Positions 1 through 44,004 of a stretch of 64,000 nt of DNA are shown piece by piece. The notes beneath the pieces are model-generated. The model saw nothing but the letters and a program-made list of their open reading frames with translations. It was not told the origin of the DNA and made no database searches. The stretch is from Candidatus Undinarchaeota archaeon. GTDB taxonomy: Archaea; SpSt-1190. Position numbers and translations under genes: made by a program. Position 1 is the stretch's first letter. Every line of letters begins with the position of its first letter. Location of the stretch: assembly GCA_964449215.1 (NCBI GenBank), contig CAYVAH010000001.1:32865-96864 (forward strand). Reading direction: 5' to 3'.

Positions 1-1
1 C

Positions 2-3000
2 ACCACCCTGAACATCACAGAGATAAGATATACCTGGAAATATGGTATGCTCTTCAATGAAAGTCAAAATGCATTCACCAGGCTGAAAATATACGAGTAT
101 GTTCCCCTGATGGAAAATGCCACACTCTACATAAATGGAAACAGCAGCAGGACAACAGGGGGCTGGGGAGAAAACTTCACCCATTCACTCTGGGTAAGGG
201 ATCGCTTCGGGAGGAATGTATCGGTGTATTTCTGGCACAGGATTGTGGGCAATGAATGGGTGCTCGTGGACAACAGCACCTGTGCCTCCTGCGGAAGCTG
301 GACCCAGATGAATTTCAGCTACAACTACCAGCCGGATGACATAAACACCTGGGAATTCAAGTTCAACGCCACGAACGATGACGGGAACAACAGCCTTGAA
401 GGTTTTGTATATGTTGTCGAGAGGGACGACGTCATCCTGAACTTAAACAAGCCGGAGAATTATGAAATTGTAAACAGGAGCGGATCATATACATTCTCCA
501 CGCGGATATATGACACAGATAATCAGACATACCCGGATGGAACAATAGGAAAAATCTTTGTGTCAATATTCGACCAGAAAAACTTTGAAGACTCACCACC
601 GCCGCTATCCGCATCGGATGGCTGGCTGAACCGCACCGTAACCAATGATGACTGGTGCTCAAATGAAGGATGGTACTATCTGGGGAACCATAGCTGGTAT
701 ACCGCCACCACAGGGGACCAGTACATAAAGGACAACTCCAGCGCCGTAAGGAATTTCACCCTGATGGGAACCCTCAGTAACACAATCACCGAGTTGATAG
801 GGGAAAACGTGAGCAAAGAATACAACTCAACTGTAATAATAGAAGGGAATGTAACAACTGATTGTGGCGTGACTGTCACTTCACCAACCGCGAAGTTTAA
901 CCTCACCAATGGCCAGTATTACTGGGAGTGCACGGGGACTCCTGTCGGCAATACCTACCAATGCAACTTCCCAACATCTTCCGCACCCTATGGGTGGTAT
1001 AACATAACAATGCTTTCAAATCAGAGCCTTTATTGGGATGGATTTGCACAGCAAGTTGCTTCATTTTATCTGGCGAGCGTGCCGGATGTGAATGCAAGTG
1101 TTGACAACCTCGAGGCTCCCTGGGGGAAGAGCCCGTTCAATTTCACGTCATATGTCACGGACCAGGACAATGATACGGTGACCATCAGGTTCTGGCTCAA
1201 GAAAGGTTCAGGATCCTGGGACAATGAACACACAGACACCAAATCAAACACCAGCAACTATCTCACATATTACGAACGCACATTCACCTGCCCCGGCCCA
1301 AATGACGTTGGCACGTGGTACTTCAAAGTCAACGCAACAGATACGTCCGGCTACTGGAACGAAACCTCAATTATTCAGTTCAACGTCACCAAAGAGCCAA
1401 TCTGGGTGATGCACTACCTCGGCGATGGAAAAACAATCAACAGGAGCGATAACGAACCGGATACCCAAACACGGCTGGCCGTCAGGCTTTATGACTACAT
1501 TCTCAACACCAACCGCACAGATCTACTGGATTCAAATGTGCTCTTCTGGGTAAATGGCACATCATTCGTATCAACTCTGAACAGCAGTGGTAAAAACTAC
1601 TACCACGACTACAAACCGACCTGCTCATTCCCGGCAGGAAATCTCAGCTGGAAAGCCAATTTCTCGGGGGAATCCTGCTATGCTGACAATTCGAGTGTTA
1701 ACTTTAATATTGTTGTGATGGGGACTCTCAATGGCAGCCTCATCGTGCCAGACGGCAATACCAACTATTCGCAAGGCGAACTCTTCAACATCACCCTCAA
1801 CTTGACAGACGACTGCAATCAGACCATTGGGGATGCAGATGTGTGGTTTAACCTCACAAATACAAGAACGGGTGACTGGTATAGGTGCCCATCAAGTGGC
1901 TACGCACAATTCAACGGCACTTACTATCTATGCGAAGTCAATACTTCCGAATTCAAGGGCGGCTGGTTTGACATATATGTGAATGCAACAAGGCAGTATC
2001 ACTGGTCATACATCAAAAACTATCAAAATATCTATTTCCAGATAACGCCCGTTACTTTGAGTTCGCCACAACACAGCGCTCCGGGTGATGGCGGGTGGGG
2101 TGAGAACCACAGCTTCTCTGTGATAGTGGACCACTATGCGGATGTCCAGGTGTGCCTACTGGAAGACCTCGGAAGTGGATGGGAAATAACAGAGTGCAAG
2201 TCAATCCCGCAACCAACCAACCAGCAGGTCTTCTTCTACAGGACATACGACTGTGGGCCCGCGAGCAGCTTCGTTTCATATAAATTCAATGCAAGTGAAC
2301 CGGGAGTGCCAAGCACGCTCTCAAACACAACATCACAGAACCATTTCATCCAGAAGGATGACGTCCAGATTGTATACATAAAGGGCAATGAAAGCACGGT
2401 CAACAGGAGCAGTGGATACACCCCCTTCATCCTCCTGATAAACGACACAGACAAAGGAGAACCCGCTCCGTATGTCCAGAGCTATGATTCCCCAAGGGTC
2501 AGGTTCTTCGTCCACAATGGAACAACTTACCTTGAGGATGGAAGCAACGTGACAAACTCATCAGGTTATGTGGAATACAGATTCAACCCGAGTTGCAGCT
2601 ATGAGAGAGGTAGGGCAACCTGGTACGGATCAACAACCCTTGATGCCTGTTACAAAGCCGAGAACTCAGGCACCTACAACGTCACAATCCTGGCGGACAT
2701 TGCACCGAACATAACCTATCCAAATGGCGAAACTTTCTACAGGCTGGCTTCTCTGGTGATAAACATAACAGTTGAATACAAAGACGAATGTGGATTGCAT
2801 TACCTGAATGCAAGTGCTAACTACACCCTGATAAGCAGAGGGTTCGGAACCCACTATAACTGCACAAGCATAGATGACTACGAAAATGGCACTCAAATCT
2901 GCCATTTCGATGCGTCGTTTGCGGATCAGGGATACTATGATGTGAACATCACTGCATGGGGTGTTGAATACCACAACAATGCCACTTATCGGAAGAACAA

Positions 3001-6000
3001 GACATTCAACCTCATACAACTGTGGAAGCCACCAGTCCTCCAGAATGAGACAGTGACTCCTGAGCAGGATGGAGGTTGGGGAGAAAACTTCACGTTCTCC
3101 GTGAATGTAAGTGATGAGAACGCTGAAGACGTGAATGTTAGTTTGTGGCTGAGTCCGGACAACTCAACCTGGGAGTGGATCGAAACCCAGACCTGCTATG
3201 ACTGCGGTTCAATAACTCAACTTGATTTCAATTACAGGGATTATGACTGCTCTGATAAAGGGACGCAGTATTTCAAGTTCAACGCCACCGATTCCCACAA
3301 CTCAACTGACCGAACTGGATTGAACTTCACCGTATATGCCGATGATGTCCAGTTCTTATATGAGGGCCTCTCCACAGGAAACGATACAACTGTGAACAGG
3401 TGGGCGGGACAGTTGCTGAAAATAAGGGTCTATGACCCTGACAATGAAACCTATCTGCCAGATTCTGAAAACACACGATTCTGGGTCACCACTGATGGAT
3501 CGTCCTGGGGTGCCCCGATGGACTCTCAGACAGACAGCAGTTACACCAACGTTACCTTTACACCCGACTGCAACTATCAAGTCGGTCCACAGCTCTGGAA
3601 GGTCGGGACATTCGGAAATAACTGCTACAAAGACACCAATTCCACACTCCATCTCACCACGACAATAACTGGCTACATGTCACTCACAATTGACCAGCCC
3701 TCAGGTGAAATGTTCTTTGAAGGTGATAACGTCACAACCCGTGCGAACATCACAGATGAGTGCGGGTCCCCAACAATAGCAGATGCCACCGTAGCGTTCA
3801 ACGTCTCTCATGACAGTTTTTCAGCCCAGTGCAAACCCGTGCAGAACGAAGGAACAGGATGGTATAACTGCACCTGGAACGTCACCGGGTCTCCCGGCGG
3901 CTGGTACAGCGTGGGAATGAACGCAAGCAGGCAGTATTACAACAACGCCTCCACTATCAAGACAAATGCATTCTTCCATGAGATTGCACCTGTCCTGAGC
4001 GGTGAATATGTCACACCGAATGAAAGTCACTGGGGGACGGAATACACCTTCAAAGTGAATGTGACTGATGAAGATGACACGGTAAGAGTGAAGCTGTACC
4101 ACCGAAAATGGCCATCAACGCTGTGGTCCGAAGTCGAAACGCAGTATTGCAGCGACTGTGTAAACAAGACGCTGACCTTCAAGAGGACCTACACCCAGAC
4201 CGAGATAGGGACATGGGAATGGAAGTTCACCTCAACCGACGATGATCTCTGGTTCAACACGAGCGTCCACAACCTGACTGTGAATAAGAGGAATGTTATA
4301 GTGGAATACTACAGAGGAAACGAAAGCAACGTAACAAGATACGGCGATAATTCAACGCTGTTAACACTCGTGGTCAAGGACGCCGTCTCTAACTCCCCAA
4401 TAGGTCAGGGTCTGGATGGTGGTTTTTGGGTCACGACCAACGGCACAAGTTGGGGACCCAAAATCCCGGAGTCCACCGAAGAGGGAAGCTATCTCAACCA
4501 CAGCTTCAAGCCGGACTGCACCTATCAGACAGGAAAACAGAAATGGAAGGGCGGTGTCGATGAAAGCACGTACTACTACGCCGGTAACTCCTCGGAATAT
4601 AACGTGAGCATATACTCAATAATCAACGGAACCATAAATATCCCGAATGGCACCCGAATGGTGAGGGGCAGCGTTCTGGAAATCTATGGAGATGTCGGAG
4701 ACGAGTGCCCAGGTCTTACCAAGGGTGCAACAGTGAAATACAGGATATACAAGGGAATTGAGTTCATCCCGTCACCTGACCCGGCAAACGACCTGAACAA
4801 CGGCACATACAACGCCAGCTGGGACACCACAGGAGCAGCCCTGGGATGGTACAATATTACAATGAACATCTCAAAGGAATATCATTTCGATTATTACAGG
4901 AAGAAAGTTAATGCGTTCTATCTTGGATCGGGCACGGAGCTGCGCAATCCCTGGGTGGACAACTCACAGGACGGGTGGGGGTACAACTACACCTTCAAAG
5001 TTGAGGTCAGGGATGTTGAAAACGACGTGACAAATGTGAGCCTGTGGTATTCCAATTCATCCAGCGGGCCGTGGAAGTTGATAGACTGGCAGGAGATTCA
5101 GACCACCGTGTTCGAGAATGTTACATTCCACCACAGCTTCGAGTGCCAGGACTATTTTGACGGACCCACCACATATTACAAGTTCCTGGCAAATGACTCG
5201 AATGGTTTCATGGACGAAACTTCCCCACAGACAATCATACTCGAGCAGGATGACCTAGGATTCATAATAGAATCTGGATCAGGGGCCAGCATAGACAGGG
5301 AAGGAATCAACCCGTTTACATTCATAGTCAGCATAAACGACACAGATGCTGGAAAACTCGTTGGGGAGGGATTAAATGGCAGTTTCTACTTCACATACGA
5401 TTCCACGGAATTTGATGCAGGTCACAACACGACAACCAACGCCACCGGACAGATTCTCTACGACCACGACCCGAACTGCACATACACCACAGGGGTCCAG
5501 CTGTGGTATGTATCAATGCATGACAATGCCTGCTACAAGGACACGGATATGGGAACAAGCACATATTCCGTGATAGGCCAGCTAAAGAACAACATAGACA
5601 TTCCTATATTTGGTTCGGAGTTCAACGTCACGAACCGGATACTTATAAGATTCAACGTAACATCGGACTGTGAAGAGGAAGGAGGAATAAATGACACCAG
5701 CTCTGTGGAAATAACACCGAAGCATAATGGCACAGGAACGGAATACTCCTGCAGCGAGAATAATGAAGGTGATGGTTACTACAACTGCAGCTGGGACAGC
5801 ACAGGAAAACCGGAAGGAAACTACACCATAATTCTTCAGAGTTCCAAGGGCTCCTACAATTCCAACACCACAATACTGATGAACTGGTTCTGGCTGGAAA
5901 ATCTACCAACAAACTACACCCGCCAGTGGGTCAGCCCCAGCACTGGAGGTTGGGGTGAGAAATTCCAGTTCAACGTAACCGTGAATGACACGGAAGGGGA

Positions 6001-9000
6001 CACGGTCACCTGCAAGCTCTATGTGAACACGAGTGATGGCTTCGTTTACAAAGGGACGGACACAATCACAGGCACTGCCGGAATTGACACGGTAGGAAAC
6101 TGCTCTGTGGAAGTGAATGACTTCTCCTGTGGAGAGCAAGGGACTGCCGAATTCAAGTGGGAAATAACTGACGGAACAGCAAGCAATCCGTTGAACACCA
6201 CTGTGACGAGCGGACCCACCATAGAGCAGGACGATACCGTGACAGAATATCTCCTCGGAAACGGCTCCTATGTCAACAGATCAGGAGGTGTGACCGAACT
6301 TATTTTGAGGATAAATGACACCGATAGAGGAATTTATGTCCAGTCAAACGGAACTGTCTGGGTGTATGACGGTTCATACTTCCCGTGGAGCAACCGCTCC
6401 AACTCGACAGGACACCTGAAAATAGAGTTCACACCCGATTGTTCCTATTCCGCTGGGCTGTGGAACTGGGTTGGAGGCGCACATGGCGATGACTGCTACA
6501 AGGACTCCAACGTCAGCGGATACCTGGTCGTGAACATAACTGGGTGGATGAACACCAATGTGATAAACCCGGATGGAGAAAAATTCCTCAGGGGAACCAA
6601 CATAACAATATGGGCGAATGTGAGTGATGAGTGCAACAACTCGGTGGTTGGAGTCGCCCTCAACTTCACCATGAGAAGTGACCAGACCGGAAGCCTCTAC
6701 TACTGTGCCCCAATATATGATGAAGGAACGGGATACTACAACTGCACTTTCAACACCAGTGGAATGGACACGCAGTGGTATGACATAATCAGCAATTCCT
6801 CACGCCAGTACTTCAACCCGGCCAGTGACACCAAGGATAACGCGTTCTGGGTTGAAACTGCACCATTCCTGTTCGCACCTTTAGTGGACCCGGGTGTTGG
6901 AGGTTGGGGAGAAACATTTTCACCGAAGGTCAATGTAACGGATTATGACTATGATGATCTTACAGTAACCTGCGAGAAACGAAAGAACGGGACCAGCACA
7001 TGGTACTCCTGCGGCGCTCAAGGCAAGAAAGGAATAAACCAGCAAGCGGTGTTCTCCACCACATTTTCATCCGCCGATATAGGCAACTGGACAATCCGGT
7101 TCAATGTTACCGAGGATGACGGTGACATATGGAATGACACAATCGAAACCAACTTCACACTCGAGAAGGATGATACTGAAATACATTATGTGGATGGCAA
7201 TGAGAGCAGTGTAAACCGTGTATCCGGAATAGCTCAGCTCAAGCTCAAAGCAGTGGATACGGACAATTCCGGGCAGCAGATATCCTCCCAGCCAGCGGCA
7301 ATCTGGGTAACCACCGACGGATCCACTTGGGGGAGTGCATGGACGACCTCAACCCTCACAGATGGAACCATATCCGTTGACTTCAATCCCGGTTGCGAAT
7401 ATGATGTGGGCAAGCAAAAATGGAGGGGAGGACTCCGGCTGAATGATTACTGGAAGATGTCCAACTCCAGCGAGTTTAATGTGACCATAACCTCGGAAGC
7501 CAAGCCATACATAATAAAGCCGAAGAGCAAAATAGCCCTGAGAGGTGTAAATGATATTGAGCTGAAGGGGAACCTTACCGACCTGGGTGACTGCGGGCTG
7601 GTTTCCGGAGGTTCACTGAGCTTCTTTGTTCCAAGTGAGAATTACTATGAATGCTCTGCCACGGACCTCGGGAACGGGAACTACAGCTGCACAATACCTG
7701 CTGCAACCACGGGGAGCTGGGCATACGGCTGGCATAACCTGACATTCAACGGGACCCGCGAATATTTTGCCGTGTATAATGACACCGTGGTGGATTCGTT
7801 CTACCTTGCGGACGACCCCGAGCTGATAAATCCACATGTGAGTCAATCAAGCGTCCCGTGGGGAACCCAGCTAAACTTTGACGTAACCTTGATAGACCTC
7901 GATCCAGACAACAAGACGGTATATTTCTGGATAAAGAGACCCGGGCAGGACTGGAAACTCGAGAACAGCACTCTATATGTTGGAGCTACTGATGGTGACG
8001 GGGAGCTCATACAGTTCCCATTCATGACAAACTGCTCCGATGTTGGAACTGACTACTTCAAGTTCAACGTTACAGACACCTCCGGGTATAATGATACCAC
8101 TTCAGGGACGGACCAGTTCACAATACAGGAGCACGGAGCATTGCTGATAATAGAAGGTGGTGCAGGGGACGATGTCAGAAGAGAGGGAGACAACTTCGCC
8201 AACCTGAGTGTCAGGGTAAGAGACCAGACCACCGCAGAATATGTCGGCGCGGGAGTGAACGGAAGTTTCTGGATACCCAACAAGACAGAAAATGAAACAA
8301 TATTTGTCCAAACCAATGGGTCAGGGTATTTCAACTACCAGTTTAACCCGAACTGCACTCATGACATAGGCACACTGAACTGGAAGGTTGGGGTGGTCAA
8401 TGACATGTGCTATGTCGATGTTAACACAAGCTCCACCGTAAATGTTTATGGGCAGCTGAAGAACAATTTGCTGCTGCCGGCTTATGATGATAGCTACAAT
8501 GTGATGGACCCTGTGCCGGTGAGGTTCAACGTCTCGACAGACTGCCCGGGAGAAGGGCTTGTGGAGAATGCGACCACAACCGTGGAAATGGTGTCTCCAG
8601 GGTCCGGGGCGTTCGCATGCACACCTGTGCATAATGAAAGCGGCGGGTGGTACAACTGCACCTGGGACAGCACGGGAATGGAAGAGGGATACTGGGACAT
8701 TCGGCTGAACAGCAGCAATGAGTATTTTGACGACAACTCAAGCACATATGGGAACTGGTTCTGGCTGGAGAATGTGCCGGTGACGGCAGAAAACAGCACC
8801 GTCTGGGTGATGAACTGGACGGTGGGGGGGTGGGAATCCGCCAATCTGAGTGAGAGGCATGGGTGGACCAGAGAATTCAATTTCACCATAAACGTCAATG
8901 ATACAGAAGGCGATAATGTTACCTGCAGGCTCTGGATAAAACACAATTCTACGGGAGAGTGGAGCATTGCCGGGAGTGACGCCATTCAGGGCACACCCGG

Positions 9001-12000
9001 GATCCCAACCCAAGGGGAATGCAACGTCAGTTACCAGGGATTCTCCTGTGCGGATATAGGCACGAACGACTTCCTGTGGGAACTACAGGACGGGGAAACC
9101 GCAAACTACTGGAACACCAGCATAGAAAGTTTGAAGCTCAGGGAATCGGAAACAAATATAACAATAAGCGCAGGAGACGGCATGCAGATAGACAGGAACT
9201 ATGAGACTCTACCAATGACCGTTTTCGTATTCGACAAGGACAACAATGAATGGACCAGTGGAGTAAATGTAAGTTTCTGGGTCAGTCATGATAATCTGAA
9301 TCCTGAGCTTGACACCGTAAAGAAAACATCCGCTGGAAATGCCACATACTGGTTCTCCCCCGATTGCTCATATACCGTTGGCATCCAGAACTGGATGGCC
9401 GGGGTAAGTGATGGTTGCTTCCAGGACGTCAACACCAGCCAGTCAACAGCAACAATCTTTGGAACCCAGACACACTACCTGCTCTCGCCTGATGGAGAAG
9501 CCAGTCTGCGCGGAACTAACGTGACAATTCGAGGCAACATCACAGACGACTGTGGAAACGGACTGGACGATGCATATGTGAACTTCACGATGACCAGTGA
9601 TTTCACGGGAGAAATGTTCTATTGTGCACCGATAAGCAACGAAGGAACCGGATACTACAACTGCACCTTCAACACCAGCGGGATGCCAGCACGCTGGTAT
9701 GACGTAACGCTCAACGCCTCGAGGGATTATCACCACGATGGAAACGAGAGCTGGGACAACAGCTTCTTTGTCTCGACCGAGCCCATACTCACAACACCAA
9801 AGGTCAACACAAGCACCTATGATGGGGATGATGGACCCGTCGGTGGATACTCTGAATTCTTCAATTTCTCCGTGGTTGTCACGGATGAGGATGGCGACAC
9901 TGTCACCGCGGATCTCTGGCTGCGGTTCTGGAACAAGACAACAAACAGCTGGAATAGCTGGACTCATGAAGGGTTAAAAATATGTGCAGACTGCAACAAC
10001 ACCGTGCTTTCATACACAAAATACAACTTCTTATGTGAAAATATGGGAACCTGGCAATACAAGTGGAACGCGACCGACCAGTCGGACAATCCACCGGGTG
10101 AGGGGATAGAATACTCTGATGAGGTCTCACCAAACAACTTTACTGTAGAAGAGGACGACATACTGATAGAATATTATGCGGGAAGCGGGGGGTGGATATG
10201 GAGAAACGGAACAGAAACTGCAACCCTCAGCACAAAAGTCTGGGACGTTGATGACCAGAGATACCTCTCTACAGGAGAGGCAAGCGGCACTATATGGATA
10301 ACAAGGGATGGAACCAACTGGGATGATGGAAACCTCCTTAGTGTGCTGGCAGGCTTCTTTAACTTCACGTTCCAGCCGGACTGCACAAACAATTACAGCG
10401 TAGGGTTACAAAACTGGATCTCGGGAACCACCGGAAACTCATGCTTCAAGAATGCAAACTCCTCCACTCACAACATTACACTGAAAACGTATATGACCGG
10501 CCAGAAAGACTATCCGGATGGTGATGCCTACGAGCGCGGGAAGCTTGTAAACTTCAGTTACTATGTGGAGGACGAGTGCTCAGTCGGTATAACTGAATTA
10601 ACAAGAACACTGAAACTCAAATCGGGAACTACAACATACACGATAACTTCCGGAATAACTGACCACGGCAACGGCACATACACATACAGCTGGGATTCTG
10701 AAGGTAAGGTCCTGGGGTGGTATAACACCTCATTTGAGGTCAGCAAGGAACATTACGTGCCACTTAACATATCTGATAGCGATGTTTTCTACCTTGGAGA
10801 ACCACCGGAGCTTCAACTCGAGAGTGTTGATAAAATACTTGGGGGTTGGGGGGAAAGCTGGCATTTCCAGGTTCAGTGCAGGGACCTCGAGGGAGACACA
10901 GACATGGTCTACCTCTGGCTTAAAAAGAACTCCACAGCCCAGTGGGAGCTCCGCTCTCAACAATCCTGCACATCCACATCCTTCCTCATCCTGGACTTCT
11001 ATGACAATTACACCTGTGACTACATAACCCCACAAGCAGATAACACACTGTGGAAGTTCAACGCGAGTGATCAGTGGAACTTCACAGACGAAACCCCCGA
11101 ACACACAATAACCATAGAAAAGGATGATGTCAGCATAGAGCACGTATCAGGACATCTTGGCAACGTTGATAGAGAAGGTTTTGGCACAGTGACCCTTGCA
11201 GTGCGCGCCTACGACCCGGATAAGCTTGAATATCTCCCGGCTGGCAGGAGTGGAACAGTTTATGTAACAACGGACGGCTCCAGCTGGGACTCCGGAAACA
11301 CCAACAGCACGGACTCTTCCGGGAACGTCTATTTCATATTCAACCCCAACTGCTCCTATGGAACAGGAATCCAGAAGTGGCGGGGTGGAATAGAGGGAGA
11401 CTCCTGCTATAAGGATAGCTTCAGTCCTGACTTCACCCTGACAGTTTATGGTCAGCTAAAGATAGCACTTGACCAGCCACCGGAAGGAAGCACCTACCAG
11501 ACAACGGAAATCGTTGATATTCGACTGAATGTGAGCACTGATTGCCAGGATGAAGGACTCCTGAACGACTCCACGGTCAATATCACGTTGAACTCGCCGC
11601 TGGATGATTCAGAGTCCTGCACCCCTGTGAATAATGAAGGCGATGGTTACTACAACTGCAGCTGGGACACAACACTCAAGATGCCCGGATACTGGGACAT
11701 TTTCACCAACGCCTCGAGGGAGTATTACCATCACAACTACACGCAATACAACGACTGGATAGAGCTGAAGAACTCCCCGACCCAATACAGCGATATGAAT
11801 GTCACTCCCCAAGTCTCCGGGTGGGGAGACCTTTATAACTACTCTGTCAACATCAGCGATCCGGACTTCGACTCCGTAAACTGCACCCTGTATATATCCA
11901 CAAACGGTGGATCAAGCTATCAATCAATCGACACGATGATCCTGCCGGGTGGTAATGGAACCTGCTATTTCGAGAAGGAATACTCCTGTGATGACATTGG

Positions 12001-15000
12001 CGAGGACAACTATTTCTATTTCGTACTGAAGGACGGTTATAACTTGGTCCAAACGGATACCGTGCAGGGACCAAACATAACAAAGGACACACTGTCCATA
12101 CAGCATGAAACCGGGGACGGTGGAGAGGTCAACAGGAGCGTTAACTCTCTCACACTGAGGGTCAACGTAACGGACCTCGACAAAGAAACAATCGCTGATG
12201 ACAACATAGTTGTGTATTTCAATATCACCACCGACGGCACGAACTACATACTTGAGGACCAGGATAACACCACCCAGGGTAAAGCAAGCATAGATTTCGG
12301 TCCGGACTGCACCTATGATGTTGGGAACCAGAAATGGTTCGCATACACCGAAAACACCACCTGCTACTACCCGGCCAACACCAGCGAATTCAACCTCACA
12401 ATCATTGGCAAGCTCCAGAACACAGTAATTCTGCCAAATGGAACCGAACACTATATTGGTGAGGATAATGTCACCATACGGGTAAATGTGACAGATGACT
12501 GCGGTGACCTGATAGATGCTGAATACATAAACTTCAGTTCAATAAATCAGGACAGTTCGCAGAAATTTTACTGCTCGCCGATAGTTCATGAAGGGACGGG
12601 CTACTACAACTGCACCTTCAACACCAGCGGGATGCCAACAAGATGGTATGACGTCGAGGTGCACTCAAACCTGACATTCCACACCCTGAGCACAGCCACA
12701 CGAACAAGCGCGTTCTGGATAGAAACGCGACCAACGATATCCCTTGTGTCTGTAACCTCAGAACAGGGCGGATCGGTCGGCGGCTGGGGAGAAACATGGA
12801 CATACAAGGTGAACATAACGGACCTCGACAAGGACGAGGTAAAGGCATACCTTTGGGAGAGACCTGCCGGTGGGGAATTCCATCTGATATCTCCGTCAGG
12901 CAAGAGTAAGCCAGCCGGGATAGCCACACAGATTGTCACATTCACATATGCAGGGTATTCCTGCACCGACCTCACCACAAGCGCCAACAGGGAGTGGTTC
13001 GTGAATGGAACAGATGATCCGTCCGGAGAAATCAAGGATCCCGCCAACACATCTGTCGGCAGCTTTACCCTTGAGAGAAATGACATATTGATCTCACTTG
13101 ATCAGGGGAATAACTCAATGCTCAACCGCAGCAACGTGACCAACGGAGAACGCGCCAAGCTACGGGTTCACATACAGGATACCGACAGGGGCAGTTCAAT
13201 AAACACACAAGACACCGCGAAATTCTGGGTAACCACTGACGGGTCCAGCTATGCACTTGATAAGCAGACAACAACCGTTGAGCCTGGTGGGTATGTCAGT
13301 GACAATTTCCCAACTGCCAACAAATGCAATTATGATATTGGACCACAGAAATGGAAGGTTGACTTCGGGGAAACCTGCTACAAACCAACCATGAGTGATG
13401 AATGGAACATAACGCTATTCACCAATCCGCTAATGGTGACCTTGTACGAGCCAGATGGTGGAACATACAGGCAAAGTGAAGATGACATAAATTTCACGGG
13501 AATGGTTTCCGACGACTGTGGTGGAGTCGCAGGAGCAACTGTTGAGTTCAAGGCAAAACAGGGTCCCGAGACCAAATCGTGCACCTCCATCAACGACAAA
13601 GGAAACGGTAATTACAGCTGCACAATCCCCGCTTCCTCGACATCAACCTGGATTCTTGGATTTTACAACACGACGATAAACGCAAGTAAGCAATACTATA
13701 ACTCAAGCGATGTTCTACAAATTGATGATGGTCTGAAACTCGTAACGGATCCTTCTATAGAAAACATGCAAGTTTCAACGAGTGACTCCAACAATCCATT
13801 TGGGTGGGGGGAACTATGGACCTTCGAAGTCCAGCTATATGACAGTGACCAGGACACATACAACTTCGAAAAGGTGAACGTCAGTCTGAACTACTACAAC
13901 GGAACAAAATGGGTTGTTCTGAACACAACAATATGCAGTGCTCCAGACTGCGCAACAACATCTTTCATCGACTTCTACAGGTACTTCACCTGCGACAACA
14001 TTGGAACGGACATACCATTCAGCTTCACAGCCGAGGACTACTGGGGTTACAAAACAACCTACAACTTCACACAGACCATAACAAAAGATGACGCAGAGAT
14101 AACAATAACCCTGCAGCCTTCAAGCGTTGACAGAGAAGGTGGGATGGAAACGTTGCAGGCGCGTGTGTTTGACAAAGATCATTTCGTGTATCCGGGTACC
14201 GGTGTCAACACAAGCTTTGAAGTCACCTACGATGGCAGTAACTTCGACACACCTGTGTATAAGGCCACAGATTCGGGAAGTTACGCCTCTTACGATTTCA
14301 ATCCAAATTGCAGCTATGGAGTTGGCCAGCAGACATGGAAAGTAAGCGTACTGACTGACAGGTGCTACTCCTCATCATTCCTTGGATCTCCCTCGGCATT
14401 CATCACAGTGCTCGGTCAACTCAAGAATAACCTCATGGAACCTGAGAATGGATCAAGCTTCAACATACTTGTGGATTCTGTCTTCCTGAGGCTCAACATA
14501 AGCACCGACTGCCAGGGCGAAGGTCTCCAAGAAAATGCCACCACCACTATCGAGCTAATCTCTCCATATGGTCAGGTCTATAACTGTACTCCTGTGAAAA
14601 ACGAAACAGGAGGGTACTACAACTGCACCTGGGACACAACAGGAAAAGCTGAAGGGTGGTGGGATGTACGACTGAATTCAAGCAAGCAGAACTACAACAA
14701 GAATTCCACAACATACTGTGATAGATTCTGGCTCGAGAATTCCCCGCCAACCACCCAGAATGAAACCATACGGGTATTCAACTACAGCTCGGGAAGCTGG
14801 TACAACAGCCTCACCGGAGCCTGGAGCGCCCTCTACAATTATTCCATAAACGTGACAGACTTTGAGGGAGATGAAATAAACTGCAGCCTGTGGATAAGTA
14901 AGGACAACGGAACCAGCTGGGAGATGGTAGGTTATGACTTCCACTCGGCAACATACGGAACCACGAACAATGTCTATTGCTCCGTGGTGTATCAGGGCTT

Positions 15001-18000
15001 TGACTGTGGTGACATAGACACACCTGAAAACGGGTCATGGATCCCTGAGAAGGCAAAGAAGTTCAAGTGGACCATAATGGACAGCACCCCGGGGAACACT
15101 TATAACACGAGTTACAGATGGGGACCGAATGTTACGGAGGCCCGGGCTAGAATCGAACACATGGAAGGCAACAACAGTCTGTTCATAAGAAATCAGGATA
15201 CCAAACCACTTGTAGTGAATGTGTTCGACCTGGATAAAAATGCCTCTGCCACAAGCAATGTGTCATTCTGGGTAACCACCGATGCCTCATCATTCCGCCT
15301 TGAACTCACCAACAGGTCGGGCCCGGACGGCAACGCAACCTACTGGTTTGCCCCGAACTGCGACCACCTCGTTGGACCGAGCTACTACTACCAGAAGTGG
15401 AAAGCCATGATCAATGATGGGTGCTATCTCGAGAAAAACACCACAGAGTTCCAATATCGTCTTGTTGGATTCCTATCACCACAGATAACAGCCACAAGAA
15501 ATGAAACTCTTGATGCGAGAACAATCTTCCTGCGCGGAACCAATGTAACTGTGAATATCAGTGTGGATGACGAGTGCTCCGTTAATGTGGACAATGTTGA
15601 AATGAACGTAAGCCTCGTCAGCCAGTACGGAAATACATTCACATGCTCTCCGATTGATGAGCTCGGATCAGGGGAGTATAGCTGTGAACAAAACACAACG
15701 GGGATGCCAGCTCGCTGGTACAACATAACCGCCAGCTTCACATACCAGCCGTGGTACCTTGACGCTAATGCAAGCAAGACCTCTCCAATGAGTGGATACG
15801 GGTATGGTGCATTCTTCATAGAAACCAAGCCAATTCTCTCACTCGAAAAAGTAAACACGAGCAATTATGATGGAGATGATGGACCTGTCGGTGGGTACTC
15901 TGAATTATTCAATTACACTGTCAGGGTCACAGATGAAGATGGAGACCAGGTCAAGGTTCAACTCTGGTACAGCAAGTGGTTAGACCCCGGTTGGGGAGAC
16001 TGGGAGAAATTACTTACGACATCGACGAGCTCCGGAGGATCAGGGGTGAACTTCGCAACGTGCACCGACTGCAACAACACACTTGTATGGCTTGCAAAGG
16101 ACAATTACCTTTGCTCTGAGATGAGCAAATACAGATTCAAGATAAACGCAACGGATGAAATTGGATCCCCCGGAGGGTATGACTCTGAAAGCAATACATA
16201 TGGCTATGAAACCTCGGACCACAACTACACTGTTGAGGAAGATGATGTTGAAGTCCTGCACAGCAAAGGTAATGGATCCACAGTATGGAGAAACGGAACC
16301 GCCTCGACAACACTCGAGACGTATGTATTCGACATCGATGACCAGTCGAATCTCAGCGTGGGCGAAGCCCGCGGCAGACTGTGGATGACAAAGGACCACA
16401 GCAATTATGAGTTCATATCGACTCTTGACCTGCAGGGATCCCCGGGAGAAACAGGATATTTCACATATGACTTCTACCCGGACTGCACCTATGATGTCGG
16501 TAAACAGAAATGGATTGTGGAAACAGCCCCGATGCCGGGAACAACCTGCTATAAGTTCGTGAATTCCTCGGAGTTCGAAACGACACCAAGAGGTTTTCTC
16601 AACATGACAATAAACCTACCTGATGGTGAATATGTGGAGAGATATGAAGACAATGTCACTGTTGATTTCTATGTCTATGATGACTGTAATCAAGGAAAGA
16701 GCGGAACTGTAACTCAGATTAGGTTCATACACCCGCAGGAAACATACATCATCTATGATGCCTCAATAACCGACCACGGCAACGGCACATATACCTACGT
16801 CTGGGACCCGGACGTTGGAGGGGCGAAAATTGGACAGTACAATATAAGTATTGACTCGGACTACGAAAACTACTATGACCCCTACTATGAGAATACCACA
16901 GGATTCAAAGAGAAGGCATTCTGGATTCAGACAAGGCCAAGCCTCTGGAGCCCGACGGTGTTCAGCGTTGATGATGGCGGCTGGGGAGAGACGTGGACAT
17001 ACCAAGTGTATTGCAGGGACGAAGACTACGACAACATAAGCCTGTTGCTGTGGAAAAAGAAGGATTCAAGCTCAGAATGGGTGCTGATAGACACAAAATA
17101 CTGTCAATACTCGGGAATTGACGGCACCATAATCAGTTTCCAGAACAATTACTTCACCTGTGATGACGTAACACCCGAAGGGGAACAAACACTCTGGAAA
17201 ATAAACACAACAGACCCTTGGAACTTTAACCAAAGCACGGGAGACCAGACCCAGACAATACACAAGGATGACGTCAGTGTATTTCCATATTACCCGACAA
17301 AAACTGAAATTTCACGGGAAGGCCCGGACAATACAACATTCAAGTTCTCCATCTCGGATACAGACAGAGGGAATGCACCTGTAGGAGCAAACATAAGTTC
17401 TGTGGCCTGGGTCACATCCAACATAGCCTCAGAGTCGGGGGACTGGACAGTAGTTTCCCTGAACAAGACAGTAAGCGACTCTTCAGTCACATTCCTGTTC
17501 AATCCAAACTGCAGCCATAACGCCAGCTACCTGCTGTGGAAGGGTGGAACCTTCAACGACAGCTGCTACAAGGATGCCAACTTCTCAACCTCGTTCTACA
17601 GTTCCAAGAGCAAGATACACGTAATAGGACAGCTCAAGAACTTCATAAACCACCCGCCAAATGGAAGCAAGTTCTTTGTGGGAGAGCTCATAAACTTCAC
17701 CTTCAATGTAACAGATGAGTGCTACTCAAACTGGGGACCCATAGAGAACGCAACCGTGAACTTCAGCATAATTCTCCCGGGGATACAGCAGGACAACTAC
17801 ACTCAGGACGACTTGACTTATGTCGGTAATGGACTCTACAACTTCTCGTGGAACACCTACTTCCACAAGGGAGGGTACTGGGACATTGAGGTATTCACAA
17901 ACAAGACCCACTACTATGCGAATACCACCTATTTCGACAATTATCTCTATCTCAACAACACCCCACCACTTGTGGAAAACTTTTCCGTGACACCCGCTGT

Positions 18001-21000
18001 TGAAGGCTGGGGCAGAACCTTCACATACAGCGCGGACATCTACGACTCCCAGAAGGACAATGTAACCTGCAAACTCTTTGTCACCACAGACGGGGGATCG
18101 AACTGGGAATACAAAGGGGAACAGGTCATCTACTGGGGTAATGGAACCTGCGAAATTAACGTCACTGACTTCGACTGTTCTGACAGAGGGACTGACAACT
18201 ACTACCGCTTCCAGATAGATGATGGAACGGAAGGAAACCTCAGGAATACCACCGATATTTACGGGCCGAACATCACGGAGGACGATGTTGGTGTCTATTA
18301 TGCATACGGGAATGCCACAAATGTGAGCCGCAAGGGAACCAACTATACGAGCCTTTCATTTCTAGTCACGGATCTAGATAGAGGAAACATCACAGTGAGC
18401 GACGCTAACGGGACGTTCTGGATAACCCGAAATGGGGTAACATATGTCACACAACCTGTCGTCCAGACCAATTCGAGTGGATATGTGGTCTACCAGTTCA
18501 ACCCCGACTGTGACCCGCTGTATGAAACCATGGTCCAGAAATGGAAAGCAGGGGTTGTCGACGGCTGCTATGTGGACACCAACCTAACAGATACCTACGA
18601 ACTTACAGTGATGGGAGACCTCACCAACAATCTTGATTATATATACAAGAACAGCATACCCACAGCACCGCCAGTGAATCTGACAAAAGGCGAGGAGGAC
18701 CTGATAGCGGACATCCATGTGACGGACGATTGTGGACTCGACATAAGCTCGGCAAGCGTCAATATAAGCTGGATAAGCGAATATGGAAACAGGTACAATT
18801 GCACGGTGAGTGACAGCGGGAATGGCATATACAAGTGCAACATGCCAACCGACGCGATGAAGGCAAGGTGGTATGACATTGAAATAAATTCATCCAAGCA
18901 ACCCTATTATTATGACAGCCTGAACACCCTACAACAGAATGTGCTTTTCCTCGAGACCCGCCCGATAGTTACAAACCTCACGTGCCTCAACTGCCCGGGT
19001 GGGTGGGGCGAAACCTTCTATTTCGCCACCACACTCACCGACGAAGACCTTGACAACCTCACACTCAAGCTGTTTGTCCGCAAGCCAGGAACCGGCTTCT
19101 TCTACGAGATGAACTCAACAAACGTCACAGCTCCAATAATAAACAAGACCGTCGTGCTTTCAGTCCCGGATACCACCTTTGAATGCCCAACTCATCTTGG
19201 AACTGGAGAATTCCGCTTTGAGTCACAGGATGACAGAAAACTCACTCAGAGCAACACAACCAACTATACCGTGGAAAGGGACGACGTGAGATTCGAAGTC
19301 TCGGAAGGGGACGGAGACTTTGTGTGGAGGAACGGCACGGGAGCACTGAACCTCAGCCTTGTTGTGTGGGATGACGACAGAAACACCACAATATCTGGAA
19401 TACAGGGAACAGTATGGGTGACTGTGAACCAGAGCTCCTGGGACTCCGGCAAGGGTATTGGGACCAATGGTTCAGGATACCTTAACTATGAATTCATGAA
19501 TGAGCTCCCGCCAGGGGGGCAGAGATGTGACTATGAACTTGGACCACAGTGGTGGCGCGGGTGGGTGAATGACAGCTGCTACAAGGACACATACTCCCAA
19601 AACTACTCACTCACAATAAGGGCGGAACTCCTCCCAGTCATACATATCCCAGACGGCGAAGGTTATCTGCTCGGTGACCACATACTGGTGGCAGGAACCG
19701 TATCGGATGACTGCCCACCGCCTGTGGAAAATGCCACCGTGACCTACAAGCTCAAGAGGGGCAGCAACACATACACCTGCAGCCCAACAAACAGCTATAA
19801 CTGGACCGAGAATCTTGGGTGGTATAACTGCACCTGGGACGCCGGGTCGAGGGTGAAGGGCTGGTATGATATTGAAATGCAGACCAGCAAGGCATACTAT
19901 GCTGATAACTCGACAACCAAGGTCCAGGCATTCTTCCTTGGTGAAGCACCAACCCTGGAGAACCCGCAGGTGGATCACGACTATGGAGGCTGGGGCGAGG
20001 AGTATGTGTTCCAGGTAATATTCAGCGACCCCGATTACCACAGCAACAACGTCTCACTGTGGGTGAGCTCTGATAATGTGACATGGTGGCTAAAGGACTG
20101 GAAGAGTGCCATAGGCGTGGACACAACGGTCCAGTTCTTCGAAAGGTTCACCTGTGATGACATAAGCTCCTTCCCGGATGGTGTGAAATACTGGAAGGTT
20201 CGCGCTGTCGACCCGTTCAATTACAGTGATGAAACCCAGCCAAAGAACATAACATTCATAAGGGATGACGTGACCGTGACCCCGCAGGCAACAAGCAACT
20301 CGTCAATCAGGAGGATGGGAACTGGCGAAGCATACCTGGAATTCAGGATATATGACACCGACCTTGGGGTTTACCCGAATGAAAGTTCCACCAGAGTGTG
20401 GATAACCGAGAACTTCACGAATTACAGTGTGGTGAAGAGCTGCAACTCCACAAACGGGTATTGCAACGTCAGCTGGGACCCGACCTGCACTGCAGAAGCA
20501 GGTGTGCAAAACTGGGTGGCAGGAACCATGGACAAATGCTACCAGCAGGTCAACTCGACTCCAACGGACCTGGAGGTAATAGGCCAGCTCTACCTGCAGC
20601 CGAACCAGCCCGAGTATCACGAGATAGTGAACCGAAACACCACAACGGAGATGAACACCAGCGTAACGGATGAGTGTGGAAACTACGTGGAAAATGCAAC
20701 TGTCATCTGGTATAATGAGATATGGGACCAGATTGCCTCCGGCTATTACGCGAACTGGAGCATCGCCGCGGGCTACGAACTCGGATCGGAAACAATAAAC
20801 GTGAACGCCACCAAGACGCACTACGATGAGGGGACCAACTCCACAGTCGTGTATGTTTACGGGTGGAGCTCCATAACGGACATAAGTCCGGAAAGTGGAA
20901 GCGAGTTCGACGCAGGAAATTCCATCGTGGTTGACTGCACCGTGAAGGATGCCAACATAGGGAGCCCGATCCCGGGATACAGTGTTGATTTCTTCAAGAA

Positions 21001-24000
21001 CGGCACGTATCAAGACACAAAGGTCACACAACCAAATGGAGTGGCAACCTGGCAGTGGAACACCAACACTGAACCGCCCAGCTGGTTCAACATAAGCTGC
21101 CGCATAAATGACAGCTCCACCATGTTCTACAACACCTCGGTGGACACGGCATCGACAATGATCCGGATAAGGAGACCCTTGATATTCGAATACATAAGCA
21201 CTGTTCCGGGAACAATATACCGGAATGACTCTTATAACCCCCACGAAAGCAACATAAGTGTCAAGGTCGTAGAGGCACAGACAGGGCCAAGCGATGGTGC
21301 AAATGTAACATTCTACAACCAGACCTACTCACTCATAGACTACTGCATCACAAACTCTGACGGGAAGTGCTGGATACTTTACAATGCCACCAACACAATC
21401 ACCCCAGACATCTACAGGATATACCTGAATGCCACAAAGGATGGGACAGAGCCCTCTGTAACCAACTACACCTCCGTGAAGGTTATGGGTGTCCTGTATC
21501 TTAACATAACCAGCCCCGTGAACGGGAGTGAACACAACAAGGGAGAAACAATAGACCTGACAGTGGATGTGTGGGACGAAAACAACAACACCATAACTTC
21601 AGCAGATGCATACTGGTGGAATGAAACTGACATGGTGGGACAGGGGCTGTCAACCACTCTGAACCTGAAAACACAGCAGACGGGGTGGAGAAACATAAGC
21701 GTTGAGGTCAGAAAAGACTGCGCCAGCTATCCCGGAACGGAATGCTATGACAGGGCTTGGAACTATTCAATAATAAAAATAAACGGGCTCGCTGGGGTTA
21801 AGTGGGTATCCCCGCCAAGCTATGCGAACCCGCCGTGGTATGAGCTCACAATTTATGTCCCATACAACTTCACCTGCAATGTATATGATGAAATAACAGG
21901 CAATGGCATTTACAACTACACCACAAATGTCTGGTACCGATTCGGAACAGGACCATGGATCCACGCTGGAACCCTCCAGTCCAACATTGACGGGGACGTG
22001 AGCTACACATACGAGCCGAACCAAAAGGGAGACCTGACATTCAAGTGCAACATAACAGATGACCCGGACAAGCTGTATCAGGCAGGGGCGTCGGAAGCGA
22101 GTGCAACATTCAACGTTAAGGATAATGTGCTACCGACCATTGAGGATAATTACATCTACCCGACCTACGGGATTGAAGCTAACCTCAACCATACCACAAT
22201 CTACGCCACAATAAGTGACAATATAGGGATAAGTGCCACCTGGGTCTCTATAGAGCTGCCAAACGGGACATACTTCACGGACAGCATGGTAAGATACCCG
22301 GATGTCGTTGTTGACAAGAAAATCTCCGACCAGAACTCCACAGGATTCACCCACGTTGAGAATGCCAGTGAGCCTGGAGAAATGAAACATTTCAACGTGA
22401 CCATACACAACAATGAATCCTTCAATGTCTATTTCAACCTGACAATCAATGGAGAGCTTGTGTTCCCGAATGTGACAGCGAGCGCCGGAAGCAACACCAC
22501 CGTGGACGCCGTGGAGAATCACAGCTTTTCGCTTCCGGAGCCACTTGACGTGGAGGTCCAGTTCTTCAACGGAACAGGAGAACCAGTGAACGTGAGTCAT
22601 GTTGCATTCCTGGACTACCGGCTTAGCTCCTACAGATACAACTACAGTTATTACCCGGAAATCGGCGGAAACTACAATGTCACCATATATGCACAGGACC
22701 TGCCCCCTGAGAGCAATATACAGAGCAAGTTCACCGGCTCCTTCTATGTGTGGGGAACCACAAATGTAACAGCGAAAAACACGCCCAAGTTTGATGTTGC
22801 TGTGGGTATCACCCAGATCAATAGCTACACGTTCCAGCTGGTGGCAAACATAACCAACAATGGACCTGCAAACGCCTGGAATGTCAGCATGAACATAACG
22901 GACGATTCCTGGAACTACACGGAATACTGGAATGGCACCCACCAGCAAACGTATTTCTACTGCGGGAAGATTCCCGCAAACAAGTCGTGTGTAATCCCAA
23001 TAAACGTAACAATAAAGGAGAAAACCCCGCCTGTTGTCATCATTATAACCTCCAACGTCAGCTGGAGAAACCCGGACAAGAGCTGGAACTACACCTCGGA
23101 CACAACCGAGGTGGAAGTCGCCGACACGCCAGTAATAGAAATACTTGAAGATGAGCTGATCGCACAGGCACCACACGGTATGAGGAGCTATCTTGGCAAC
23201 CTAACAATAGCTTCCACGGGTAACTCGCCTGTGTTCGATCTGGAGGTCTTCCCGGTCGGTGGGAACCTGTTCTACGAGTGCCCCGAATGCAATTTAATAC
23301 TGTTCCCGGACTCCCAGGGGATAATGAATGCCGGAACGAATTACACGATGGACGTGGAACTCGACGTTCCGGGTGGCCAGACTCCCGGGGAATACTGGAC
23401 GGTAATCCGCGCAAACACTAGCAACGCCGCCTACGACGATGCATTATTGAATGTAACAATCCCGTGGAACAGTAGCTGGACCCGCTCGCCCTCTGGGCTC
23501 GGGACCATACTGGCACTGCTGAACACAAATGACACCATAGGGAATGTCACCATAAAGAACATAGGGAATGTCAGGGTGTATGTCACCACATACATAAGCG
23601 GTGCGGGAGCCACCCTCGTGACCGCGGAACCAAGGACCATGGGAATATCAAAGCTCACGTCGAGAAACCTCACAGTGAGTTACAGCATACCGCCGGATAT
23701 CTCGCAGGGACTTTTCCCCGTGCAACTAACACTAAGGGCAAAGGACGAAAAGGGAGACGATGCCGGACAGGAAACGGTCACATTCACTCTGAATGTCACG
23801 GACCTCCCACCAGCCATAGAAAACATCTATGTGGAACCACGGGACTTTGAAATATATCATGATGTTGTGAACATCTCCGCCACAATTACAGACAACTTTG
23901 AGGTCAGTCTGGCTTGGCTCAACATAACCCTTCCAAACGGCACATTTTACAGGAAATACATGAATAACACAGGGTCATTCTATTTCTCAGATTACAGCAC

Positions 24001-27000
24001 GAATATTACGGGCCTGTATATCCTCCGCATCTGTGCAAATGACAGCAGACAGCTGGAAGGATGCACAGCGCCCATAAACCTCACAGCCAACGCCAACACA
24101 AGCTTGAAGTTCCTGCCAAACAGGGAATTGGTAGTCGATAACGCCCGCTGGCTCGACCCCGTTAACTTTACACTCAATTACACCATAAAGAACGCCCGTT
24201 ACTCAAGAGCCTTCAACATAACTGCCAACTATTCAAGCCCCGATGGGTGGAACGTTTACCCACTGGGTGTGAACATCTCTCTGCTGTTGAAACAGGAGGA
24301 ATACAATGACACCCTGAACATTGAGGTACCGGCCGCCACCCTGCCAGGGAACTACAGCTTCAACGTCCTGCTCAACTGGACCAACCTCGATAACACCACC
24401 GGGTTGAACGACACGAACTTCACCATAGAAGTTCTTGAGAACCCACTCATAGAGTCCACTCCTGAAGAAATGAAGTTCACCATAATAAACAAGGAGTGGA
24501 AGAACAAGACGTTGTTTGTGGAGTCCGCAGGAAACGTTATTGTCAACGCTGTGAATGTTACTTGCTTCGGAGGAGTGGTATGCGAAAACATGAGCGTGAA
24601 CATCACCCCGAGCGTGCTTGGATCCATGCCACCGGGAACACTGGCACTTGTGGACATCAGAGTCCAGGTTCCGGAAATCTTTGAGACCGGACTGTATGAT
24701 GGCTACCTCTTCGTGAATGGCACGGAATCCAGCGACCTCACCCGCCTGTGGGTGAGGGTCCCACTCAACATTTCATGGGAGCACAACCCAACCAGCATTT
24801 ACAGGAAGCTTGTTCAAGGAGAAAGTGGAGAGTTCGGAGTTGTCACCATAAAGAACACAGGGAATGTTCTGACAAAACTGTGGCTCAATGTCACAGGGAA
24901 CATAACCGGTTACGTGTCCTTGAATGAAAGTTACCTCGAGATTCCAATCGAGGAGGAAAGATATGTGGCAATAAATTACAGCATGCCCCCAACATATGAC
25001 CAGCTCTATCTCAGCGGTGCCTTCATAAGTGAAAACAACAGCGCAAACATAACCCAACAGGCCACCTCGCTGGGGATGATGGTTCACCCGCTCTGGGTCA
25101 CCATAATTTCACCAACGCAGACCAGCCCAACAATAAATGTTAGCAACGGCACGACGATAAATGTAAACATAAGCGCCACCTATGGGTATTCGCTCATACA
25201 ATCCGGAATAACATTCAACGCATCACTCCACAGAAACGGAACATATTACGATGTGAATGAGAGCTACTACTACAATGACACGGATTTCCTCTGGCACCTG
25301 AACTTCACCGCACCGGACCTGAACCGGAGTACAGGCTACGACCTCGTGGTAACGGGCAACTATTCCCTCTATGATATTGCAAAGACGGACAGGGAAGACA
25401 AGGCAGTGATATACTATGATGTGATACCCCCGGTGGTTGACCTGAGACCGCCCGCGAAAGCGAGTGTCAACGGGACGGCCATGATAAGGCTGAACGCCAC
25501 AGATGCCGGTGGTGTGAAGGACGCCACCGCCACAATAACCTTCCCAGATGGGAACACTGTAAAGAGTTATGAAATGCATCTCGACTACATAGCTGGGGAC
25601 ACGTATGCGTTTTCACTGGCGTTCAACGAGACCTGGCAGGAAGGAATTTATGGGGTGTCCGCCAAAGCCTGTGACTATTCCGGGAACTGCGGATCCGACA
25701 CCGGTCAGTTCGCGACGTTCCAATACGCCAGGTTCTATGGCAGGACACTGGACCTCGAGAAGTCTGACGAGACTCCCATCAACCTGACATTCGACCTCTA
25801 TGAGGAAGGAACGATGAACCTGCTCCAGACAGTATATCCGAATGAAACTGGACATTACAACGAAACCATAGATGTGAGAACCTATGACATTGAAGCAGGC
25901 TTTTCGAATATGTCCTGCAAGTTCTACGGCGTTCCAATATTCACAGACGTTTATAACCCTGTCCAGATGGGCCGCATAAGTCCCAGCTTGATCGGGAAAG
26001 GCTCGCTGGTCGGGATGGAACTCGTCGAAAACCTGAGCTTCAGTTCCGCAAAAATAAAGTTCAGCTATGCGGGATATGAAGGAATAGATACCAGCAATCT
26101 GGCAGTATATACCTGCGAGGACTGGGTGAGGTTCAGTGGGTGTGCAAACAACAGCTGGGTCAGGAGCAACAGCACTGTGGTCGAACCCGGCACGGAAGAA
26201 GCCTACGTAATTGTAAGCGACCTTTCGGAAGCCTATGCCCTCGCAGAGTATGTTTGCGGGAACGATGTGTGCGAGACGCCCTATGGAGAAACGACTGCTG
26301 TGTGCCCGCAGGACTGCCCGGCAGGAGGGGCAGGAGCAGGGGGAGCAGCAGCAGGGGGTGGAGCCGGTGGGGGAGCAGCGGGAGGAGCAGCCGTCGCACC
26401 GGCTCCGACACCTACCATCCCGGCAGAAAAGTTCAAACCGGTACCTGTGGAGTTCAAGGCCCCTGTGATAGACATCACGATATACCCGGGTGAGTCAAAG
26501 GTCTTTGGAGTCGAAGTAACCAACAACATGGAAAATTCCACAACCGGGAGGACATATGCAGAGGGTCCTGTATGGACACTGCTGGAATTCCAGTTCGAAA
26601 ACTTCACCGTCGAGAACAAGTCAACAAGGACAGTGCAGATAAATGTTGTCCCAACTGCCAACGTGACTCCGGGTGTATATACAGGGGACATTGTCCTTGA
26701 AGTCGCGGGCATAAAGCACCGCATACCTGCTTCAGTAGCTGTGGAGATACTGGAAGAACCACTGCTCGACGTGAAGGTCAAAACACTCACAAAGAGGGTG
26801 GCACCCGGAGAGCCGTTGAAGTTTGAGGTCACCCTGATAAACATGGGTGGGACGGAGGAAATAGAGGACATAGTGGTCAACTACACGGTAATGACCCTCG
26901 AAGGGGAGGAAACCACAATAACAATAGCGGGAGAAACTGTAGCCGTTGAAAACCTGAACAGGTATGTCAGGGAGGTTACAATACCTGAAGATGTGCCTGA

Positions 27001-37400: not shown

Positions 37401-37436
37401 ACCGAGCTTTTAAGAAAAGCTCGACCAAAAGTGGAT

Positions 37437-37517: not shown

Positions 37518-37518
37518 T

Positions 37519-39526: not shown

Positions 39527-39559
39527 CGAATGCCCTGTCGGGAAGGTATAAAAAACTAA

Positions 39560-40954: not shown

Positions 40955-41002
40955 GAAAAACCAAAGAGCACAGAAATTTAAGAGAGATTAAGGACTCTGG
41001 AG

Positions 41003-41737: not shown

Positions 41738-41751
41738 AGGTGGTTAAAACA

Positions 41752-44001: not shown

Positions 44002-44004
44002 CTC

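Follow-up and report, generated by a model that had tools for sequence, protein, structure and literature searches.

Giant surface proteins have been described in several archaea. The SPEARE proteins of the Nanohaloarchaeota have a long ectodomain, a transmembrane (TM) helix near the C-terminus, and a cytoplasmic domain. Initially taken for a type III restriction enzyme (PMC6642349), this domain was subsequently reinterpreted as a VirB4/TraG-like ATPase that carries a coiled-coil tail, and the proteins were given a proposed role in host binding and secretion (PMC10266531). Proteins of this type include NAR1_1133 (5,998 aa), the protein of Ca. Nanopetramus SG9 (8,553 aa), BNXNv_0298 (8,880 aa), and SVXNc_0300 (9,409 aa) (PMC6642349, PMC10266531). 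The size of 9,409 residues is the largest reported in cultivated archaea (PMC10266531). Halomucin (Haloquadratum walsbyi), of about 9,000 aa, was long cited as the largest archaeal protein (PMC6642349). Archaeal proteins above 10,000 residues are reported to exist in small numbers (bioRxiv 10.1101/2023.11.21.568195). Here, a giant gene was analyzed at the 5' edge of a 64,000-nt stretch of DNA (the window) from the Candidatus Undinarchaeota archaeon SpSt-1190 (assembly GCA_964449215.1, contig CAYVAH010000001.1, positions 32,865 to 96,864 of the forward strand). It is very probable that window nt 2-28387 are the 3' 64% of one 44-kb gene, whose first 5,229 codons are removed by the window edge and not by a contig end, and which encodes an exported ectodomain tethered by a C-terminal helix, with a cytoplasmic ATPase, in the SPEARE architecture.

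The gene lies in frame 2 of the plus strand (2..28387). The frame is open from nt 2 and reads TTLNITEIRYTWKYG, followed by the first Met (Met16, nt 47-49). It then runs uninterrupted to the stop codon at 28385-28387, giving 9,461 codons in total. No in-frame ATG, GTG, or TTG is present 5' of nt 47 (window nt 2-46). A run of 15 stop-free codons has a chance probability of (61/64)^15, about 0.5, and is uninformative alone; coding upstream of Met16 was therefore judged by homology. When nt 1-400 were scanned for sigma-70 promoters and terminators, consensus matches appeared on the minus strand only, and this consensus is not applicable to an archaeon. The original prediction held that the frame is open from nt 2, and that the gene is cut by the window edge and encodes more than 9,461 aa. 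Both statements agree with the present results, as the full-length product is recorded in a sister assembly.

Sister assemblies were looked up by the exact sequence of the 233-residue product of the downstream gene (window 28384-29085). This gene was found on contig k141_149502 (65,627 bp) of the ENA assembly ERZ27248458, where the product of the preceding gene is recorded as 14,690 residues (gene of 44,073 nt). The fetched part of k141_149502 (L041) was compared with window 18384-32625, and differed at 7 of 14,242 nt (99.95% identity). The contig is thus an independent assembly of the window's population, and the seven single-base differences in 14.2 kb indicate strain-level variation within the sampled population. 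The giant gene ends at position 4239 of k141_149502 and has a computed start near 48,311, with 17.3 kb of contig beyond the start. The call of the open reading frame (ORF) is therefore not cut by a contig end. By this record, the window covers the C-terminal 9,461 residues, and a further 5,229 residues (15,687 nt) are encoded upstream of it. Window nt 1 falls at position 32,625 of k141_149502, on the reverse strand. A contig of 113,072 bp carries these proteins as well. The sister assembly and this longer contig show that the window edge is a windowing cut, and no end of an assembly.

Homologues of the region at the 5' edge of the window, here called the junction, were searched. The protein search with window residues 1-600 returned fragments only, with identities of at most 65% among the matches listed. 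They belong to archaeal metagenome-assembled genomes (MAGs) labelled Aenigmarchaeota, Nanohaloarchaea, 'Thorarchaeota', and others; the giant protein itself was not found in the database searched, whose listed matches are all about 1,000 residues long or less. Seven of the fragments align through window residue 1 and reach 100-440 residues further upstream. In the trimmed junction alignment, Y10, W12, and G15, all before Met16, are invariant, and the Met16 column is K in 6/6 homologues. A scan of species-representative genomes for the junction region identified 38 related loci, almost all in DPANN MAGs. The best one (L025) has 69% identity to the window, and none of the 38 is identical. Metagenome-contig and viral-contig scans with window residues 1-400 gave no matches. 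A motif, N-[VIL]-T-[VI]-x-K-I-x-Y-T-W-x-x-G-K-x-F-x-E, spans window residues 2-20 and is conserved in 34 relatives, in which the Met16 column contains K, R, T, L, or N, and M in none. In addition, the hydropathy scan found no hydrophobic or export segment after Met16; the sole predicted TM helix of the window's 9,461 residues is at 9039-9057. The Met at nt 47 is an internal residue, and the start codon lies upstream.

The 52 residues before the first repeat unit (nt 2..157) are the C-terminal tail of a spacer module of about 830 residues. Residues 1-57 share 68% identity with the last 57 residues of the L025 spacer. The spacer is kept at full length in about 35 relatives and always ends exactly at the start of the unit array; it contains NPCBM_assoc and DUF11/CARDB-type β-sandwich domains. 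No second copy was found within the window protein. In the AlphaFold2 model of the homologue P0008, window residue 1 corresponds to residue 410, inside the strand 396-423 of a domain with a predicted local distance difference test (pLDDT) score of 82-93. The window is therefore predicted to start in mid-domain. Met16 corresponds to K425 of the model, between the last two strands and 37 residues before unit 1. A Foldseek search with the multi-domain P0008 model found generic β-sandwich arrays only, with low TM-scores.

The 5' part of the gene can be compared with the relatives. Where enough 5' DNA is available, the ORF extends about 2,530-3,130 residues upstream of the junction before a stop codon in 11 relatives; that of L025 shows no stop over 3,333 residues, up to the edge of the locus. 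The N-termini of the relatives contain a basic stretch, a hydrophobic segment of about 20 residues, and then sequon-rich sequence. The common layout begins with a signal or anchor at the N-terminus. About 1,300-1,600 non-unit residues with MG2/filamin-like immunoglobulin (Ig) domains come next, and then about 1.6 units, the spacer, and the long unit array. Three relatives (L004, L007, and L025) have two copies of a unit block plus the 830-residue spacer, forming a super-repeat, and the identity between the two spacers of L025 is 29%. A search of 1.84 billion cluster representatives with the junction profile gave only 178 matching proteins (E<=0.001). In long proteins matching the whole profile, the junction is always far inside, such as residue 2569 of 5418. 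By comparison with these sequences, the missing 5,229 residues fit an L025-like arrangement with two unit-and-spacer blocks, and the ~780 residues directly upstream of the window should be spacer. Such an arrangement would place about 5-6 units and the two spacers behind an N-terminal region of roughly 1,400-1,900 residues. The suggestion that further repeats might lie upstream is likely correct, since units lie upstream of the spacers in the relatives. The prediction of an upstream signal peptide is likewise supported as an inference, as no export segment follows Met16 and the relatives' N-termini are hydrophobic.

Three other explanations were considered, and two of them concern the 5' edge itself. 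If the ATG at 47 were the true start, the window would hold a complete protein of 9,446 residues, and the frame before it would be open by chance, as is expected about half the time for 15 codons. The ORF listing gives 47 as the first start, and an AT-rich stretch, AAGATATA, lies about 20 nt upstream. However, residues 2-15 fit the invariant family columns, the Met column is never M in the relatives, and the window is modelled to start in mid-strand of a folded domain. A start at 47 would also leave no signal peptide or TM helix after the Met, and therefore no export signal for a glycosylation-rich ectodomain of 9,038 residues with 481 sequons. The refuting condition named in the original prediction, an upstream stop in frame within a few codons, runs counter to the 14,690-residue record and to the long upstream ORFs in 12 relatives. 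Thus, this explanation is very nearly untenable. Only slightly more credible is the structure given in the original prediction, in which the window starts inside one of the ~322-residue units, made of domains A, B, and C, and more such units lie upstream. The relatives do carry a few units further upstream, and 'NAF...P.L...GGWGE' resembles the unit boundary by eye. A profile was built from the 52 residues before each of the 20 internal unit starts, and window residues 1-52 were scored with 500 shuffles. They scored 0.2 bits, and 250/500 shuffles were equal or higher. The proposed alignment of the Met region with the end of domain C in later units was therefore not supported; the 'NAF' common to residues 1-52 and the unit ends is a coincidence. 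In every relative, the ~830 residues directly upstream of the array are spacer, never units. The Met is placed in the last two β-strands of the spacer and not inside a repeat unit, while GGWGE (residue 53) was correctly recognized as the start of the first unit.

The remaining explanation concerns the length. The call of 14,690 residues might be an assembly or gene-calling artefact, in which paralogous repeat genes were joined into a chimera or two adjacent ORFs were called as one, and the true length would lie above 9,461 residues but well below 14,690. This gene is highly repetitive, its 5' part is spanned by only one accessible assembly, and short-read assemblies break in neighbouring repeat genes, as two ENA contigs end inside the 1,893-residue gene nearby. 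On the other hand, the ORF continues without a break for about 2,500-3,100 residues upstream of the junction in 11 independent MAGs, and for more than 3,333 in L025. The units share just 21-37% identity with each other, so collapse or chimerism by exact repeats is unlikely. The length of 5,229 residues also fits the L025-like layout of an N-terminal region plus two unit-and-spacer blocks. An artefact is therefore improbable, and the single 44-kb gene remains the preferred explanation.

After the spacer tail, 21 head-to-tail units of about 322 residues each (residues 53-6918, nt 158..20755) were identified by the unit hidden Markov model. The last unit is partial and covers profile positions 1-244 (window 19985-20755). 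The AlphaFold2 model of one unit (pLDDT 90.7) has three tandem Ig-like β-sandwich domains, in agreement with the three domains A, B, and C previously proposed for each unit; the 21 units contain 63 Ig-like domains. Foldseek matched the unit model best to extender regions in giant bacterial adhesins (MpIBP, SiiE, and LapA-type), and to the MG domains of complement and alpha-2-macroglobulin. The array is followed by a non-unit ectodomain of about 2,100 residues (6919-9038, nt 20756..27115), with a Gly/Ala-rich linker at residues 8775-8786 and membrane-proximal β-sandwich domains. Only weak Pfam matches (NPCBM_assoc, Big_7, and MG4) and no NCBIfam match were found in residues 6919-9038. The partial last unit resembles the partial units (positions 1 to ~200) that precede spacers in the relatives. 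The ~2,100 residues after it show no homology to the spacer, and hardly any family matches. There are 481 N-glycosylation sequons before the TM helix and none in the last 460 residues. No toxin-like or β-propeller domains were found in the window part.

The TM helix is predicted by the hydropathy scan at residues 9039-9057 (IFSSWVTWVIFFMLAPIVY, nt 27116..27172, plus strand), and is followed by a basic stretch. Most of the protein length is thus predicted to be extracytoplasmic, with a single TM helix near the C-terminus and a cytoplasmic C-terminal region. This region (nt 27173..28384) contains a P-loop ATPase of the HerA/FtsK superfamily, with a Lys/Glu-rich tail at the end. The Walker A motif GATGSGKT (residues 9124-9131, nt 27371-27394) and the Walker B motif LIVFDEVH (residues 9251-9258, nt 27752-27775) are both present. 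The Pfam matches of the domain are PF01935 DUF87 (1.5e-9), PF04851 ResIII (2.2e-6), PF02534 (T4SS-DNA_transf, 1.9e-5), and HerA_C, and the PDB match is HerA (4d2i, E 3.2e-9). In NCBIfam, CedD, HerA, TraD, TraC, and VirB4 all scored far below their cut-offs (best CedD, 47.3 bits vs 600); therefore, the domain is not a member of these specific equivalog families. It shares the Walker A/B motifs and the DUF87/HerA central domain (E 1.5e-9) with HerA (4d2i), the CedD/CedB proteins of crenarchaeal DNA import, VirB4/TraC, and VirD4/TraD/TraG. In contrast to the HerA/FtsK translocating ATPases, it is fused behind a TM helix to a giant ectodomain. The 509 homologues of the domain (E<=0.001) form their own subgroup; the 120 listed are 46-63% identical, and mostly from DPANN archaea.

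By its architecture, the giant protein may be assigned as a new, unusually large member of the SPEARE-type giant surface proteins of DPANN archaea, which are tiny symbionts. It shares with them a huge tandem Ig-like ectodomain, a single C-terminal-proximal TM helix, a cytoplasmic ATPase with ResIII/VirB4/TraG/HerA matches, and a charged helical tail. The unit and spacer architecture was also found in Nanohaloarchaea MAGs (L008, L010, L019, and L023). However, there are several differences. The protein has 14,690 residues, as against the SPEARE maximum given above. Its three-domain units are arranged in blocks separated by the spacers. No laminin-G, β-propeller, or toxin-like domains were found in the window part, and its sequons are very dense. 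The GC content is about 50%, and binning assigns the closest relative to the Undinarchaeota, not to a halophile.

Other giant proteins are less similar. The bacterial adhesins MpIBP (4p99/5irb), SiiE (2yn3/2yn5), and LapA-type (6xi3), the best structural matches of the unit, also use tandem β-sandwich extenders to project a binding region. However, they are type-I-secreted and held in the outer membrane, have no membrane helix or fused cytoplasmic ATPase, and share only 10-14% identity with the units. Halomucin, compared by its description, is likewise a very large archaeal extracellular glycoprotein, but it is secreted, mucin-like, and without the module of TM helix and ATPase.

Several points weigh against the assignment and the proposed full length. 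The putative SPEARE membership is set by architecture and published descriptions. No laminin-G domain was matched by Pfam in the 9,461 residues of the window part. The second VirB4/TraG-family ATPase gene downstream, which is described only for SVXNc and BNXNv and does not define the family, is absent here, since the 233-residue and 387-392-residue genes have no ATPase match in Pfam or NCBIfam. The length of 14,690 residues is a gene-caller record from a short-read assembly of a highly repetitive gene, so that the assembly may contain an error, and the start codon may lie at a slightly different position. Relatives of 27-69% identity are the source of the layout proposed for the missing part. 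The function of the protein is entirely inferred.

The downstream neighbourhood contains two genes on the same strand, both without family assignment. The 233-residue gene (28384..29085) overlaps with its start the stop of the giant gene, and the 387-392-residue gene (29051-30229) has weak SMC-like coiled-coil matches. The giant gene and these two genes are probably one operon, because the trio was found together in four assemblies. The giant gene faces a convergent gene on the minus strand (30222-35903), whose large surface-type product has 1,893 residues and contains NPCBM_assoc and MG2 domains. Both k141_149502 and k141_173806, two independent contigs in ENA, stop within this gene, which suggests that it holds a repeat or strain-variable region that breaks assemblies. 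Further downstream is an ordinary housekeeping region, with CysRS, the archaeal-type two-subunit PheRS, an aldehyde dehydrogenase, and a NIF3 homologue (37851-49277, minus strand). Genes for tRNA-Ser (37436-37518), tRNA-Pro (42742-42816), and tRNA-Gln (61781-61853) were also found. The window is chromosomal, and not a mobile element.

Additional observations were made upstream of the giant genes in the relatives. A gene of about 280 residues lies directly upstream on the same strand in L005 (361-1209), L012, L014, and L024. Its product has a winged-helix domain, a TM segment, a Ser/Thr-rich stretch, and a CARDB-like domain; the L022 version has no winged helix. A profile search gave 105 homologues of this partner, and no copy was found on the window's contig. 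In L018 (1775-1970) and L033 (683-860), a winged-helix(-like) domain of about 60 residues is fused at the N-terminus of the giant protein itself, before the membrane segment. The motif K-x-E-x-G-Q-(S/T/V/A)-(Q/E)-(L/I) lies directly before the hydrophobic segment in the giant ORFs of L005, L012, L014, L015, L022, L024, and P0151, and in their small partners. GQ(S/T)(Q/E)L is not claimed here as a class III prepilin-like signal, as it does not fit the archaeal rule [KRDE][GA][ALIFQMVED][ILMVTAS][ILMVAS]. A MinD/ParA-like P-loop ATPase gene is located upstream of the giant gene in L021 (~1180-2050), L033 (1-545), L009 (1-575), and L023 (1-240). One homologue is much shorter (L029, CP070801.1, a complete Aenigmatarchaeota chromosome of 1.05 Mb): about 470 residues precede the junction and 1,530 follow it, and the sequence is interrupted by an N run. 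The size range of the family is about seven-fold.

The truncation itself is an artefact of windowing, and the gene runs on into the neighbouring window. For genome annotation, the two windows need to be joined before the protein is described. The ~44-kb gene and its 14,690 residues exceed both the 9,409-residue record (PMC10266531) and the ~9,000-residue halomucin (PMC6642349), and place the protein in the rare archaeal class above 10,000 residues (bioRxiv 10.1101/2023.11.21.568195). A bolder view, which we regard as speculative and rather unlikely, is that the full-length protein, with 14,690 residues and a mass of about 1.6 MDa without its glycans, would surpass all DPANN proteins described so far, at about 1.5 times the record, and may be anchored at both ends, by an N-terminal anchor and by the C-terminal helix plus ATPase, with both termini cytoplasmic. 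It would then be a signalling or transport machine linking the surface to the cytoplasm, and no passive adhesin. The hint of signalling or transport comes from the winged-helix/TM/CARDB partner directly upstream in the relatives, and from the winged helix fused N-terminally in two lineages.

In the preferred model, the part outside the window would consist of a basic stretch with a hydrophobic anchor or signal, a non-repeat region, and short unit blocks, each followed by a spacer, the last of which would end at window residues 1-52. The N-terminal signal or anchor would direct the export of an ectodomain of about 14,000 residues with heavy N-glycosylation. Tethered by the C-terminal helix, it would form an extended chain of roughly 130 or more β-sandwich domains. 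The ATPase in the cytoplasm would drive translocation of DNA or effectors, the role proposed for its counterpart in the SPEARE proteins, or remodelling. The ectodomain would reach and hold a host cell, as is thought for the SPEARE proteins of DPANN archaea. The anatomy of the family has become clearer, with blocks of three-Ig-domain units separated by a conserved spacer of about 830 residues. The family is narrow, with 178 proteins, and the fetched genome loci are almost all binned as DPANN. Among the candidate means by which DPANN symbionts may hold on to their hosts and exploit them, the SPEARE-type proteins are the leading ones.

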